A stretch of 64,000 bases of DNA from an uncultured Chthonomonadaceae bacterium (GCA_963817895.1 CAWFQB010000005.1:32001-96000); one strand, 5' to 3'; positions 6,436 to 64,000 are shown, numbered from the stretch's first letter. Numbers and translations are program-made. Notes: a model not told the origin generated them from the sequence alone.

Positions 6436-6497
6436 GACGCTTGTAGCGGGCGGCTTGTTCCGTGATTCAACGGAACCTCGCTCGCTTGCCCCTCGTC
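6436..6497. promoter_or_regulatory. Back-to-back ECF-sigma-type promoters GGAAC-N17-CGTC (minus 6436-6461, plus 6472-6497)
   Basis: Both motifs are exact and each points into one of the two divergent genes. Confidence 0.6.
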
Positions 6498-6585
6498 TTT
6501 TTCCTGAAAGATATTAGATAAAAGATAGAAGATATAGGTAAGAGGCACAAGCCGAACACCTGAACACCGAACACTGGAGAAGACC

Positions 6586-7503
6586 ATGTTAGCCCACCGA
6601 ACGATTTACGCTACGTTTGCCAACGAGCGCGACGCGGAACGAGCCGCCGGCGCGCTGATGGATCACGGCGTGAGCGCGCAAGCCATCAGTTTTGTGCTGC
6701 CCCACGAGAACAATTCCCCGATTGTGGCCGGTACGCCGCATATTCCCGGCGCGCATCGCGCTATTCCCAACGACCTTCCCATTCCCGATATGCAAACGTC
6801 CGCTTCGCCTGTCACTGCGGGAATTGACCTGAATACAGGTTCGCGCGTGGGCGACGATGTTACAGTCGCGCGCAGCGCGTCGGGCTATCAGTACGACGCT
6901 TTGGGCGCGGAGATTCCCGACGCTTCCCCTGCGGTTCCACCGACAACGGTTCCCGTCGCCTACGTTCCCTCTACAGACCGCTATGACGCTATTCCCATCA
7001 ACACGCCCCTGCGTTCACACCCGGACATTCCGCAAACGGATATTCCCGCCCTTGCCGGCAACGCGTCTCTGGAAGCGGTTTCCGATGACCGCGCCCACAT
7101 CGTGGATCAGCAGCGCGTGGACACGGCTGCCGCGCATGGCATCACCACGACAACCGGACGCGACGCGGCAAAGGGCGCGGTAGGGGGCGCGGGCATTGGC
7201 CTCGGGCTGGGCGCGCTGCTCGGGCTTGCCGCGATTGCCATACCAGGTGTCGGGTGGGTGGCGGGCGCGGGCGCGATTGTGGCGGGACTGGCGGCGGCAA
7301 CGGGTGCAGCGGGCGCGGTTGCCGGGGGCGCATACGGCTTTCTGGCTGACATGGGTTTGCCGCCCCACATTACGCAGCATCTGCAAACCCATCTGGAATC
7401 GGGTGGCCCCGTCCTCAGCATCCACCTTCAGGACAGCAAACCGGAATCCGAACTGCTGGCCCTGCTCACCAAATACGGCGCGACCTCGGCGCAAGCGTTT
7501 TAG
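6586..7503 (+). CDS. General-stress-protein-like membrane protein with glycine-zipper hairpin
   Basis: IYATFANERDAERAAGALMDHGV N-terminus; GAVGGAGIGLGLGALLGLAAIAIPGVG...LADMGLP. Confidence 0.75.
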   Translation: MLAHRTIYATFANERDAERAAGALMDHGVSAQAISFVLPHENNSPIVAGTPHIPGAHRAIPNDLPIPDMQTSASPVTAGIDLNTGSRVGDDVTVARSASGYQYDALGAEIPDASPAVPPTTVPVAYVPSTDRYDAIPINTPLRSHPDIPQTDIPALAGNASLEAVSDDRAHIVDQQRVDTAAAHGITTTTGRDAAKGAVGGAGIGLGLGALLGLAAIAIPGVGWVAGAGAIVAGLAAATGAAGAVAGGAYGFLADMGLPPHITQHLQTHLESGGPVLSIHLQDSKPESELLALLTKYGATSAQAF

Positions 7504-58083: not shown

Positions 58084-58340
58084 ACGGCCTCCTCTGCGCG
58101 ATAACAACAATAGTTCGATACCGACACATCTGCAAACGATGAAATTAGAAAGACACGGGGAATGAGAGTAGTATAACAGAAACAAAGAAGAAGAACAAGA
58201 GCAAATCAGGGTGAATTTTGGTTACTTTCCGGTTTTACGCGCCCTTTAGCACAACACGCGCTGTTTTGCGATACAATAGAGGGAAGATACGAGATACAAG
58301 CCGAACACCTAACACCAAATGCCGATGTGGATACATTACT

Positions 58341-60385
<2,045 letters not shown>

Positions 60386-60387
60386 GT

Positions 60388-61431
60388 ATGGTTCTCATCT
60401 CGTGCGACCCGGAATTTGAAGCGCAGGCTTTGCAGGAGTTGCGGGAACTATGGCCCGCCATGCCGTCCCCGGAATGGGTAGGGGATGGCGTGGCGCGGTG
60501 CGTACCCGGAGTTGAATTCGGGGCGTTTGCCGCGCTTGTGACGAAACATGCGCCCATTTTCATCCGGCATATCGCGCCCGTGCAGCGCGAAGTGGAATTG
60601 AGCGGCGGAACGGCTGATCTGGAATTGTTCGCAAACGCCGCGTTGAGCCTTGCGTCCCTGCTGAACCCGAACGAAACCTTTGCCGTTCAGACGCGCTTTC
60701 TGCACGAAGAAGCGCGTCCGTATCGCAAGTTCACCCTGAACGAAACGCTTTCCACGCGGCTGCAAGCCGAAACAGGCGCGGCAATGGAGTGCAAGACGCC
60801 CGCGCAGGTGGTTTCCGTCGCCTGTACGCAGACGCGGGGCTATGTCGGCATTTCGCGTACTGCGCAGAACCGCAGCGCGTGGCCGGGTGGGGAACACCGT
60901 TTCAAGCGCGAGGAGGGGCAAATCAGCCGCGCCGAGTTCAAACTGCTGGAAGCCTTAGACGTATTCGGCCTGACGCTTCCTGTCGGCGGCAAGGCGCTGG
61001 ACATGGGCGCGGCTCCCGGCGGCTGGACGCGCGTATTGCGGCAGCAGGGCTTGCGCGTTGTGGCGGTTGACCCTGCCGACATGGACGTTCGCTTTCGGCG
61101 CGACCCGAACGTAACCCATGTTGCCAAAACAATCGAGGCGTTTTTGCCCACGCTGAAAACGCGCTTTGATGTTGTGGTCAATGATATGCGGATGGATGCC
61201 GACGCCTCGGTAGAAATGATGCTGAAAGCCAGCCGCAGCCTTGTGCCGGACGGCCTCGCGATTATGACGCTGAAATTGACAAAGGCAGTGGAAACGCGGC
61301 GCAGCGTTCTGGACGAAGTTCGGCAGGCATTGGAACGGTTACGGCGCGAGTACGATGTTGTCGGGGCGCGGCAACTGTACCACAATCGCAGCGAAGTAAC
61401 GGCAGCTTTGCGACGCAAAAGTGAGGGCTGA
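60388..61431 (+). CDS. FtsJ/RlmM-like SAM-dependent RNA methyltransferase
   Basis: PIFIRH, ISRAEFKLLEA, ALDMGAAPGGWT, VVAVDPA, VVNDM, LYHNRSE. Confidence 0.85.
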   Translation: MVLISCDPEFEAQALQELRELWPAMPSPEWVGDGVARCVPGVEFGAFAALVTKHAPIFIRHIAPVQREVELSGGTADLELFANAALSLASLLNPNETFAVQTRFLHEEARPYRKFTLNETLSTRLQAETGAAMECKTPAQVVSVACTQTRGYVGISRTAQNRSAWPGGEHRFKREEGQISRAEFKLLEALDVFGLTLPVGGKALDMGAAPGGWTRVLRQQGLRVVAVDPADMDVRFRRDPNVTHVAKTIEAFLPTLKTRFDVVVNDMRMDADASVEMMLKASRSLVPDGLAIMTLKLTKAVETRRSVLDEVRQALERLRREYDVVGARQLYHNRSEVTAALRRKSEG

Positions 61432-61482
61432 AACCCCCGAAAACTTCGCGGCTGAAATTTCATAAAAATTGTGAAAATAGTG

Positions 61483-61516
61483 GGAACAACTGCCGCCACG
61501 GCTCCGTCTCTATAAT
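61483..61516 (+). promoter_or_regulatory. ECF-type GGAAC-N17-CGTC promoter motif with adjacent TATAAT
   Basis: GGAAC 61483-87, CGTC 61505-08, TATAAT 61511-16. Confidence 0.55.
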
Positions 61517-62068
61517 CGTAATCCACACAGTTGGATACCTACAAAGAAATAGAGTTGAACAACTGAATACCGCGAATAACCAAATACCGGCAAACGAGAT
61601 AGCCAACTGAATAGCGCGTCAAAACTAAATACTGTCACAAAACAAATAGCGACCCTAAAATGAATATCGTTTCCCGCATCGGCAATGTTTGTTGATGTGT
61701 GGTTCAGGCCTTGAGCGTCTGTGCAATGTCTTGTGGACATTCTGCGCAGGCGTTCTTTTACTATATTTTGCTCTAACTTCATAGCGTTGGACAACTACAT
61801 AGTGGTCGAAACAACTTAATAGCGCGAAAAACCTCATAACGGCTCAACCTGACAACTGAATACACAATTGAATAGTCAACTGAATACGCGGCAATCGGAT
61901 TTCCCGACCAGACAACGACATAACGGTACAATCGAATACAGCGTACTGCAGCTCAAAATTGAATAGCGTCCACAATCGAATAGCGTTCCAATCAAACAGA
62001 GTTAAAGTTGTGAAATATACAAATTATTGTAGCGTCCTTTGTGCCTGAAGCGCAAAGGACGCTATTTT
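61514..62068 (+). ncRNA. Candidate multi-motif ncRNA (CAAYYGAATA-like repeats)
   Basis: No credible ORF; ~15 same-strand motif copies; central G-U hairpin 61713-61755; promoter upstream, terminator downstream. Confidence 0.55.
62030..62068 (+). terminator. Intrinsic terminator
   Basis: TAGCGTCCTTTGTGC-ctgaa-GCGCAAAGGACGCTA-TTTT. Confidence 0.8.
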
Positions 62069-62069
62069 C

Positions 62070-62139
62070 ATGCCTGCTAAATAAAACTTCGTGGGGACAT
62101 AACATGTGTCCCCACGTTTCTTATTTGAATGATGGTATA
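62070..62139. repeat. Degenerate relative of the 26142 palindromic element
   Basis: aaataaaac..CGTGGGGACA-taacatg-TGTCCCCACG..cttatttgaa..ggtat. Confidence 0.5.
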
Positions 62140-62161
62140 TATGAAAATACCTGTAAAAATA

Positions 62162-62194
62162 CCCGCCGCCCACGTTTATATATGTGGCGGCGGG
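62162..62194 (-). terminator. Terminator for gene 62221-62886
   Basis: CCCGCCGCC...GGCGGCGGG with an A-run on its left (U-run on minus strand). Confidence 0.6.
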
Positions 62195-62220
62195 AGATGG
62201 TTTGACTGGAAACGAGTTGC

Positions 62221-62886
62221 TTACGCGGCGTTGCCGGCGTTAGCGGCGCGGCGGCCGGGAGTGGGATGCGCGGCGATGTATTTGGCAATCGCATCCTTCT
62301 GCGGGGCGGTGAGCAGGGCTTCCACCTGCATTTTGAAATCAGCGTTCACTTCACGGTTTTTCGCCTGACGATCCGCCTGCGCCACGCCTTTCAGCTTGGC
62401 GCTTTCCGTTTCGGTGATGGCGCTGATTTTGTCCATCTGGTCTTTGGTCAGCTTCACATCCGGCAGCGCGCCGACGGGAATGGTCTGGCTGGCGTTGAGC
62501 ATGCTGATCATGGGCATCGCCTTTTCAACGGCGTTGGCCTGATCGGTGGTCAGGACGGCCTTGACATCCGCAACCGCTTTGGTGTTCACGTCGCGGCGGG
62601 CGGTGGCGTCGGCAGCGGCAGCCGCGTCGGTTTTGGCTTTGTCCTGCAAACCGGTTATTTTGGTCTTCTGCTCGTCTTTAAGCGGGCTGACCATATCCAG
62701 AACGGCGACTGGAAGCGTCGCCAGCGTAAGGCGGGCGCCGCCTCCGCGACGTCCCTGACGGGCGGGCGCGGCGCCGGCTGCGGGCGCTTGTCCGGCGGGT
62801 GCCGGGGGCGCGTCCTGCGCAAAGACAGGAATCGTGACAGCGAAAAGGGCGGCGGCAACCATCGTGTTGCGAATGAGATTGTACAT
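62221..62886 (-). CDS. Secreted Spy/CpxP-like (LTXXQ-repeat) protein
   Basis: GGAGG RBS; signal peptide; LKDEQ, LTTDQ, LTKDQ, LTAPQ repeats; TGAAC-N16-CGTC upstream at 63027-63051. Confidence 0.7.
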   Translation of the reverse strand: MYNLIRNTMVAAALFAVTIPVFAQDAPPAPAGQAPAAGAAPARQGRRGGGARLTLATLPVAVLDMVSPLKDEQKTKITGLQDKAKTDAAAAADATARRDVNTKAVADVKAVLTTDQANAVEKAMPMISMLNASQTIPVGALPDVKLTKDQMDKISAITETESAKLKGVAQADRQAKNREVNADFKMQVEALLTAPQKDAIAKYIAAHPTPGRRAANAGNAA

Positions 62887-63204
62887 GGAAACATCCTCCG
62901 AGAACGAGTGAAGTAAACGATCGAAGCGAGCAATCAGATGAAACAGTGAAAATTTTGCGGGCGGCAATGTCCGCGCAAGTGGTTTGAAATGGCAGTTGGC
63001 GCAATCCGCGCCTAAACAAATTGGTAGACGCCAAAAACTGCCCATAGTTCATTTTACCAGCAAATTTGTTTGCTTTCCAAATTTTCCACAAAAATAAAGG
63101 GTGTTTGGGTTGAGGAGGGATGCGAGATGAATTCTCTCCTGCTTGTATCTTGTATCTTGTATCTCGTATCTCTCCTCTTCTCCTTTTCTTCCCTTCTGCC
63201 CTGC

Positions 63205-63233
63205 TTGACACAAAACTGCAACCTTGCTATACT
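63205..63233 (+). promoter_or_regulatory. Near-consensus sigma70 promoter
   Basis: TTGACA-N17-TATACT. Confidence 0.75.
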
Positions 63234-63530
63234 ATATTTCGTAGCAGAACATAATGCTGCCTGCGTTCGGGTTTGTAACTTTCGCTCTACCCGGTGCAAC
63301 CTTTCTGCCGCCTGTCGCTGTCTATATGTGTGGCAACCATGAAACTACACAATCTACACAACTGCATCACGGACTGTCATTGCGAAGCCCATAGCGCGCC
63401 TGCCGCTCACGAGCGGTTGGCATGGCCTTGCGCCGACCAAAGCGGAAGACAGGGGAGCGTCGTAAGACAGGGAATCCTACGGCATACCCAACATCGGCAC
63501 ACGCCTGCGCCTGTGTCGGCGTCGCCTCCT

Positions 63531-63562
63531 CCCGCTCCATGCCCCGGCATCGGGCGGGTTTT
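63531..63562 (+). terminator. Terminator-like hairpin in the leader of the HNH gene
   Basis: CCCGCTC-c-ATGC-cccg-GCAT-c-GGGCGGG-TTTT. Confidence 0.5.
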
Positions 63563-63686
63563 GCGTTTGGGAAGATTGGTGGTTGGTGGTTGGTGGTTGG
63601 TGGCTGGTTAAATCAGGCGGTAATGAGTTGCTGTCCATAATCTACTGTCTACTGTCTACTTTCAACGAAAGGGGAGTCGAACCACG

Positions 63687-64000
63687 ATGAATCAAGAAGT
63701 GCTGGTTCTTAACAGCGATTACGAGCCGCTCAACGTGTGTAATGTGCGGCGGGCGATTGTGCTGGTTTATCTGGGCAAAGCGGATATTCTGCACACGAAC
63801 GACGACGGGATGGCGGCGACAGTGGACGGCGAGTTTATGACGCCCTCCGTTGTCAAACTGCGCGGTCATGTCAAGCGTCCGCTGCCGGAACTGAAGCTGT
63901 CGCGCCGCACCATCTTTGCGCGCGATAACTACATCTGCCAGTATTGCGGCTCTACGACCAAAGACCTGACGATTGACCACGTTATTCCGAAGCGCGCGGG
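63687..64000 (+). CDS. HNH endonuclease (McrA-like), frameshift ~63720, truncated by window edge
   Basis: AAGGGGAG RBS; EVLVLNS / YEPLNVC..RRAIVL, PSVVKL, SRRTIFARDNYICQYCG, LTIDHVIP. Confidence 0.88.
   Translation, partial: MNQEVLVLNSDYEPLNVCNVRRAIVLVYLGKADILHTNDDGMAATVDGEFMTPSVVKLRGHVKRPLPELKLSRRTIFARDNYICQYCGSTTKDLTIDHVIPKRA

Follow-up and report, generated by a model that had tools for sequence, protein, structure and literature searches.

We describe here a locus at ~61517-62068 on the + strand of a 64,000-nt window, the whole stretch of DNA analyzed, from an uncultured Chthonomonadaceae bacterium (GCA_963817895.1, CAWFQB010000005.1:32001-96000; positions are counted from the first letter of the window), in which some 15 copies of a 14-nt motif, ACAACUGAAUAGCG, lie between a promoter of the ECF (extracytoplasmic function) sigma type and an intrinsic terminator. 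We read it as the gene of a ~550-nt non-coding RNA that would be induced by stress and serve as a decoy with many binding sites for a conserved RNA-binding factor, with Hfq and the glycine-rich RRM proteins as candidates, and give this reading an even chance. As judged from sequence comparisons, the motif is a modular RNA element of Armatimonadota, found in stand-alone RNAs, in the leaders or tails of glsB-type stress genes, and in the leaders of cyclic di-AMP (c-di-AMP) riboswitches.

In the proposed mechanism, an ECF sigma factor of a general-stress-like regulon would switch on the RNA, which would display about 15 single-stranded copies of ACAACUGAAUAGCG around a two-hairpin domain. These copies would bind one conserved trans-acting factor multivalently, probably an RNA-binding protein, and under stress the many-site RNA would compete for it with few-site mRNAs and leaders, a logic shared with CsrB/CsrA and CrcZ/Hfq, though the motif is another one. 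What favors such a decoy role is the constancy across the phylum of an unpaired 14-nt motif, of which leaders have few copies and the stand-alone RNA has 13-17, together with the fact that the copy number is highest exactly where the RNA has lost its downstream gene. The expression under stress, the existence and identity of the factor, and the titration effect are what we infer. Below, G000 denotes the source genome and G001 and G002 its two congeners, L-numbers denote individual loci, and f-numbers families.

The motif in the window and across the phylum

The decamer CAAYYGAATA matches eight times in the window against an expectation of 0.33 (sd 0.59), a count of at least eight being reached in none of 100 shuffles, and seven of the eight matches fall within 61560-61982. 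The whole 7.48-Mb source genome (14 contigs, 81% complete) has 51 matches on both strands, with the locus as the sole cluster of three or more. The exact copies in the region, CAACTGAATA at 61560, 61604, 61853, and 61877, CAATTGAATA at 61865, and CAATCGAATA at 61929 and 61973, lie without exception on the + strand (7/7), as had been claimed in an earlier note on this DNA, and the exact copies listed there are all in place. A 14-nt weight matrix built on 149 instances from relatives yields 15 matches of at least 9 bits within 61559-61985, recovering the variant copies that the note had placed at 61792, 61812, 61956, 61622, 61774, and 61913; its weaker copies at ~61640 and ~61657 were seen by eye only, at ~61637 and ~61656. 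The extended consensus ACAACUGAAUAGCG, derived from 82 strict instances at 24 loci, reads A, C/A, A, A, Y, Y, G, A, A, U, A, n, C, G, and the spacing between copies is irregular, ranging from 12 to 283 nt.

The three orthologues of the genus have 15, 16, and 13 matrix matches of at least 11 bits, and 15, 17, and 16 of at least 9 bits, with 1-8 in the other loci. In the three-species alignment, identity to the window is 74% (G002) and 67% (G001) for the motif cores, compared with 54% and 38% for the spacers. Further, the three orthologues give predicted unpaired probabilities of 0.67, 0.76, and 0.77 for the cores versus 0.40-0.42 elsewhere, an accessibility matched by none of 1000 random placements in any of the three. 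These values show selection on the motifs, which are predicted to be single-stranded.

Counts over relatives are drawn throughout from samples of related, non-independent genomes. Among 41 relatives searched by BLAST, G002 has a syntenic orthologue, 68% identical across 492 nt, and four further genomes gave partial matches. The scan for motif clusters in this genome and its relatives, which the earlier note had proposed, was extended to the phylum with the pair AAYYGAATA-N2-30-AAYYGAATA; this is present in 72 of 401 sampled genomes, compared with 10 of 401 for the reversed control, some of the 72 being chance or coding matches (L010-L013, L027, and L032). At least three matrix matches were found in 40 of the 62 loci retrieved. 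In these 40 array loci, 246 motif matches lie on one strand and none on the other; an ECF-type promoter stands no more than 330 nt upstream in 26 of them (2 of 40 in a reverse-complement control), and a terminator-like hairpin follows the last motif within 220 nt in 31. The array loci inspected span the families f1, f3, f14, f29, f7, f8, f11, f12, f23, and f34, and many of them are stand-alone. The conservation in relatives on which the note had staked its reading is thus there, in that arrays with promoter and terminator recur across the phylum and motifs are kept better than spacers.

A scan of a genome collection for three motif copies gave at least 120 stretches and is no census beyond the phylum. 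Simple tandem repeats with units of 8-9 nt, from Bacteroidota, Methanosarcina, and others, make up most of the matches listed; look-alike arrays among them come from Chthonomonadaceae and Armatimonadota metagenome-assembled genome (MAG) records (L070, L083, and L101). Also among the matches listed are irregular arrays like those of this RNA in Candidatus Aquicultor, Pyrinomonadaceae, and a 65%-GC 'Oscillospiraceae' MAG (L076, L092, and L111), which may reflect either spread outside the phylum or mislabeled bins.

The author of the earlier note had not recognized a named family here, and Rfam 15 gave no match at an E-value of up to 1 in 60500-63000; on nine homologous loci, it returned only two matches to microRNA models, far below the gathering score. 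No tRNA or tmRNA was found by ARAGORN in 60000-64000. A literature search turned up papers for comparison only, with no description of this RNA or of any Armatimonadota small RNA (sRNA). The RNA is an uncatalogued new family.

Anatomy and structure of the predicted RNA

The putative promoter (61483-61509, +) consists of GGAAC at 61483-61487, 17 intervening nucleotides, and CGTCT at 61505-61509 (a regular-expression match at C5:93483 of the source genome). Across the three congeners, its GGGAACAA and CGTC are unchanged and the TATAAT box varies (three-species alignment); hence, the note had correctly placed a promoter upstream, but the conserved element is of the ECF type rather than a TATAAT box. 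The form GGAAC, 16-17 nt, CGT is a feature of ECF-sigma-dependent sRNA genes and, by its sequence, appears to be present at this locus. Transcription would start near 61517, and at the presumed 5' end of the RNA lies a small hairpin, AUCCA/UGGAU (61521-61536, +), which was read from the sequence, is present in the centroid fold, and has counterparts in L002, L005, and L182.

The first motif cluster (61559-61669, +) comprises matrix matches at 61559, 61576, 61603, and 61621, followed by the two weaker copies seen by eye. Its last copy abuts hairpin P1 (61673-61702, +; predicted fold, loop GGCAAUGUUUG), and a motif copy lies directly 5' of P1 in the locus of every relative displayed. A conserved linker, UUCAGGCC (61703-61710, +), leads from P1 to hairpin P2 (61713-61755, +), which has a conserved base, GAGCGUCU, and an apical loop around UUGUGG (UUCAUGG in relatives), with a U run directly on its 3' side (61756-61764, +). 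P2 and the U run look like an internal intrinsic terminator, and a shorter, ~245-nt form of the RNA ending at P2 is possible. The second cluster (61773-61985, +) holds the other 11 matrix matches, at 61773, 61791, 61811, 61828, 61852, 61864, 61876, 61912, 61928, 61955, and 61972. The unit ends in an intrinsic terminator (62030-62068, +) with the stem 62030-62044/62050-62064, a 5-nt loop, and UUUU; the 15 base pairs ascribed to it in the note are recovered when counted by hand, and the RNAfold structure has 16. Running from putative promoter to predicted terminator, this anatomy bears out the discrete + strand transcription unit that the note had proposed.

The long hairpin that the note had seen separating two motif clusters is there, but it proves to be part of a conserved, covarying two-hairpin domain (61673-61755). 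Its preference for the + strand also stands (P2 folds at -25.7 kcal/mol on that strand versus -12.5 on the - strand), with four G-U pairs rather than three, and the fold z-score against shuffles is -2.24 on the + strand versus +0.21 on the - strand. With a covariance model (R1), the P1-P2 domain was detected in 27 of the order's 68 genomes (20 of 41 in f1, 6 of 24 in f3, and 0 of 2 in f2). In an alignment of 26 sequences (A3), which was fitted to the covariance model and is therefore somewhat favored by it, 89% of the cells are paired, compared with 73% when shuffled and 32-49% with partners slid, and 13 of 22 pairs show changes on both sides; the covariation score of 0.538, against 0.234, is reached in none of 500 shuffles, an outcome in favor of the hairpins when put to the covariation check that the note had suggested. 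Helix 1 of A3, corresponding to P1, has 90% of its cells paired and both-side changes in three of six pairs, while helices 2-4, corresponding to P2, covary. The sequence conserved in the P1 loop, the linker, and the P2 apical loop (UUCAUGG) shows that P2 is not simply a generic terminator. In family f3 (L190:1501-1594, +, and L192:1405-1494, -), a sigma-70-family gene follows shortly after the P1-P2 domain, and motif copies are few or absent; there, the domain may be an independent regulatory element, possibly one resembling a riboswitch.

The description of the region as an A-rich island free of open reading frames (ORFs) holds: its GC content is 0.41-0.455 against 0.56-0.57 for the contigs, it is A-rich and G-poor, and its longest + strand ORF has 32 aa. 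A coding reading was tried and rejected, as no ORF is conserved; the one of 94 aa at 61510-61794 on the - strand is not preserved in either congener.

Upstream, outside the RNA, lies a gene for an FtsJ-like methyltransferase (60388-61431, +; Pfam PF01728), a neighbor also present in G002 and G001 and not in other genera. The downstream neighbor (62221-63045, -) encodes a 274-aa protein without a Pfam family; as it is on the opposite strand, there is no gene for an RNA of 61517-62068 to lead into. Between the terminator of the RNA and this convergent gene, we observed a second perfect hairpin (62090-62116) with T runs on either side, likely a bidirectional terminator. Further upstream, an ABC-F ATPase gene (58218-60385) is split over three frames (ORFs 58218-59171, 58852-60009, and 60068-60385, with the Pfam domains ABC_tran, ABC_tran_Xtn, and ABC_tran_CTD), which means that either the gene is broken or the assembly contains two frameshift errors.

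Gene contexts and rival explanations

Elsewhere in the family, outside the source genus, the RNA is flanked on one side by an ABC-F gene and on the other by a gene for a small Transgly_assoc (GlsB/YeaQ/YmgE-type) membrane protein. In the source genus it is stand-alone, and the glsB-type gene is found elsewhere (contig C3 of G000); the note's claim of a stand-alone RNA thus holds for this genus and fails for most related genera. The C3 gene has one motif-like site in its 5' region and, behind it, an array of 3-4 copies with a terminator. In four loci of f7 and f23, a sigma-70-like promoter, a 5' hairpin, and an array of 2-4 copies precede a c-di-AMP riboswitch aptamer and a terminator; these RF00379 aptamers (L214:365-498, -; L221:373-501, -; L224:370-496, -; L223:522-711, +) score 67-91 bits (gathering score 38), and RF00379 has no match in the window region or in G000. 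Since the glsB loci and the four riboswitch leaders are other RNAs with few motif copies, what the decoy model requires of its competitors is present. Two of the riboswitches, in L214 and L221, have no gene closely after them and are possibly orphans; downstream of the one in L221 is a gene for 6S RNA.

The ECF promoter pattern has 57 matches in G000, compared with 42 for a reversed control. Its intergenic matches precede genes for an ECF sigma factor (Sigma70_r2/r4_2, L160) and for KGG-repeat (L161), DUF2382 (L162), and BON (L163) proteins, an aldo-keto reductase, and CsoR-type repressors. The gene for the ECF sigma factor is at C1:1571137-1571934. To judge by these annotations, the genes behind the promoter would resemble a general-stress regulon. 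Within the window, GGAAC-N16-17-CGTCT also occurs at 6472-6498, before a gene (6586-7503) for a 305-aa protein without a Pfam family.

These contexts make a cis-acting role a serious, if unlikely, rival to the decoy. The motif copies of such a leader module would be landing sites for a factor controlling termination at the following hairpin (P2 or the riboswitch terminator) or the translation or stability of the downstream gene, and the window locus would be a copy detached from its gene, which may act in trans or be a by-product. A same-strand Transgly_assoc gene follows the RNA in at least 8 of 22 loci (Pfam-confirmed for two), and in G010 the terminator ends 5 nt before the ribosome-binding site of the glsB-type gene, leaving no room for that gene's own promoter; yet arrays also lie 3' of glsB, at the C3 locus of the source genome and in G001, and many array loci are stand-alone. 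The f3 domain preceding its sigma-70-family gene, the f7/f23 arrays directly 5' of aptamer and terminator, and the one copy that always abuts P1 likewise fit a leader, but in the window and both congeners the unit ends in a strong terminator, with the next window gene on the other strand, and a search by eye gave neither an antiterminator structure competing with P2 nor any alternative antiterminator pairing. The TRAP-binding trp leader of Bacillus has 9-11 (G/U)AG triplets spaced 2-3 nt that overlap an antiterminator. Like it, the glsB-linked relatives have short repeats arrayed in an untranslated leader, with a terminator right behind them; unlike it, the RNA has no run of four (G/U)AG triplets so spaced ([GT]AG occurs 15 times versus 15.7 in shuffles), and its units are 14 nt long and irregularly spaced.

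Alternatively, the motif could be the multi-copy seed of a base-pairing riboregulator or RNA sponge directed at UAUUCRRUUG sites in mRNAs or in a small RNA, which we consider quite unlikely. Conserved unpaired stretches of 10-14 nt are typical of seeds, and G000 encodes Hfq; however, 15 copies of one seed would be unusual, and a motif constant throughout the phylum would require an equally constant target. MicA and RybB of E. coli are ECF-dependent base-pairing sRNAs. GsrN of Caulobacter is reported to be an ECF/general-stress-dependent one (PMC5869019). The RNA shares with all three an sRNA gene with a GGAAC...CGT-type ECF promoter within a stress regulon, but where they have a single pairing seed it repeats one motif ~15 times, and no complementary targets were found: near gene starts in G000 the complementary 9-mer has 21 matches and the forward one 30 (7678 crude 5' windows, whose ORF proxies include shadow ORFs), and the complement forms no cluster anywhere in the genome. 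Very unlikely, in our estimate, is a function without any sequence-specific partner, in which the A-rich, structure-poor arrays of long untranslated stress transcripts would serve as spacers, stabilize 5' leaders, or modulate access by Rho or RNase. The arrays do occur in untranslated leaders before conditional terminators, and the region is A-rich and G-poor, but a mere spacer would not hold a 14-nt consensus with an invariant AA..GAAUA across families while the spacers drift. We regard as extremely improbable that the copies are double-stranded DNA sites (iterons or operators), a caveat raised by the earlier reader, or a selfish simple repeat without RNA function. In line with the latter, simple tandem repeats sharing the 8-9-mer occur in other phyla among the matches listed, and G000 does carry a species-specific (CTAACAAC)n; but unlike (CTAACAAC)n, which is restricted to the source species, the motif is conserved across families. 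For DNA sites, the strand set by promoter and terminator would not matter, yet all 246 motif matches of the 40 array loci lie on it, with irregular spacing (12-283 nt), and the G-U pairs and fold energy favor the + strand; nor is there a rep or dnaA gene among the adjoining ORFs, the neighbors being the methyltransferase and the 274-aa protein. A 6-kb skew profile shows no sign change and is too short to tell on a replication origin.

A link between the motif and the (CTAACAAC)n arrays, both of which contain ACAAC, was considered and rejected because the latter are nearly confined to G000. That genome has 164 clusters of a 7-8-nt unit (CTAACAAC, TAACAAC, or CTGACAAC), often as inverted pairs that enclose an intergenic segment of 50-70 nt, and many of the clusters immediately precede ribosome-binding sites; examples are L203:1425-1455 (upstream of csrA), G000:C1:1417058 (10 units), and G000:C1:959357 (7 units). 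The three-unit pattern occurs 278 times in G000, once or twice in G001, G002, and G019, and not at all in the remaining 64 of the order's 68 genomes. We also observed in G000 seven elements of ~300 nt upstream of unrelated genes (C1:1044129, -; C11:64794, +; C14:610114, +; C4:195205, -; C5:422315, -; C7:85023, -; C4:301613, +). Each has a -10-like box, one motif-like site of the AAAACCGAAUACCG type, and an ORF of eight codons (MPVHIRxP-type, a proline and then a stop) with a very strong ribosome-binding site, followed by a conserved segment; the short ORF is reminiscent of arrest-peptide leaders.

Weighing the decoy model, its partners, and its parallels

Sequencing runs share 0.04-0.09 of the sampled words with the locus, and none contains the exact sequence. 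Three metatranscriptomes, from three studies, gave contigs of 207-383 nt, 88-99% identical to the locus, which span only 61547-61962, bridge P2, leave the coding flanks uncovered, and stop short of both 61517 and 62068 (a probable DNA run spans 61375-61762), a hint that close relatives express the RNA abundantly; such contigs give no strand, ends, or level, they come from relatives at this degree of identity, and DNA can occur in RNA libraries. That caveat is one of several points that weigh against the decoy reading. Most related genera have glsB or a sigma-factor gene immediately downstream of the RNA, an arrangement that fits a cis-acting leader. Only a few mRNAs of G000 bear the motif: outside this locus and the glsB locus, there are 293 matrix matches, hardly more than the 199 for the reversed control, and the 30 motif matches near ORF starts show no common theme. 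Neither the motif nor the ECF promoter occurs upstream of csrA, hfq, the four RRM genes, or the two CSD genes of G000. Across ten RNA-bearing genomes of ten families, Hfq is found in nine, RRM_1 in nine, and CsrA in eight, so that none is strictly co-present with the RNA, and Hfq and RRM_1 are indistinguishable by co-occurrence. Finally, an ABC-F gene split over three frames means that single-base indel errors are possible in the assembly.

As to the partner that the decoy model calls for, G000 encodes one Hfq, four glycine-rich RRM_1 proteins, two CSD cold-shock proteins, and one CsrA. CsrA is an unlikely partner because the RNA has no excess of GGA and because CsrA was not found in two of the ten RNA-bearing genomes, namely G313 (94% complete) and G085 (97% complete). 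RRM_1 is present in 296 of the 401 phylum genomes and missing from five of the 72 motif-pair genomes (G325, a clear member, and four doubtful ones), a co-occurrence that we do not use as evidence, as the genomes are non-independent kin and it has no control gene family.

In its proposed action, the RNA comes closest to CsrB/RsmZ and CrcZ. CsrB/CsrC and RsmX/Y/Z are decoy RNAs of CsrA/RsmA with many GGA (A(N)GGA) sites, mostly in hairpin loops. Like CsrB and RsmZ, the RNA described here is a non-coding RNA of a few hundred nucleotides with its own promoter and terminator and many exposed copies of one motif, which also occurs at lower copy number in mRNA leaders. Unlike them, its motif is ACAACUGAAUAGCG, and the note's remark that this is not the GGA motif is upheld (5 GGA versus 7.0 in shuffles, sd 2.3; ANGGA 1 versus 2.4); it is also set apart by the lack of an Rfam match, by the presence of CsrA in only 8 of 10 RNA-bearing genomes, and by its ECF-type promoter. 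The sigma-54-driven CrcZ and CrcY antagonize a global RNA-binding protein, and the RNA is like them in its length (~400-550 nt), its several unpaired A-rich motifs, and its alternative-sigma promoter, here inferred. CrcZ and CrcY of Pseudomonas are reported to sequester Hfq via A-rich motifs (PMC4063720). By analogy, we liken their antagonism of Hfq, which is encoded in G000 and in 9 of 10 RNA-bearing genomes, to the one proposed here. The RNA differs from CrcZ/CrcY in having no AAnAAnAA, no run of four ARN triplets, a different and longer motif, and an ECF instead of a sigma-54 promoter, and in belonging to a different phylum. CcsR1-4 of Rhodobacter are repeated sRNAs that depend on a stress sigma factor and are co-transcribed with a small protein gene. 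The RNA parallels them in repeated motif-bearing modules tied to a small stress gene and an alternative sigma factor, but the CcsR RNAs have C-rich hairpin loops and the motifs here are A-rich and unpaired. Type III antitoxin RNAs (ToxI-like) consist of near-exact tandem repeats of ~35 nt followed by a same-strand toxin gene, unlike the present 14-nt units spaced 12-283 nt, which are followed by a terminator and an opposite-strand gene.

A broader reading, of which we are somewhat doubtful, is that of a third global RNA-decoy circuit beside Csr/Rsm and Crc/Hfq, in which ACAACUGAAUAGCG marks RNAs of stress and osmotic signaling, one reader recognizes them, and an ECF-induced RNA with 15-17 sites titrates it; that reader would possibly be the glycine-rich RRM proteins or Hfq in an unusual mode. 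Almost nothing is known of RNA-based regulation in Armatimonadota, a widespread and mostly uncultured phylum of soil and plant surfaces. A conserved motif implies a conserved reader, and the pair would be an addition to the very few protein-decoy RNA systems known from bacteria. For pull-downs and for the annotation of metagenomes, the motif and the covariance model offer direct handles, and the reader, if found, would link the general stress response with c-di-AMP and osmotic signaling at the level of RNA.

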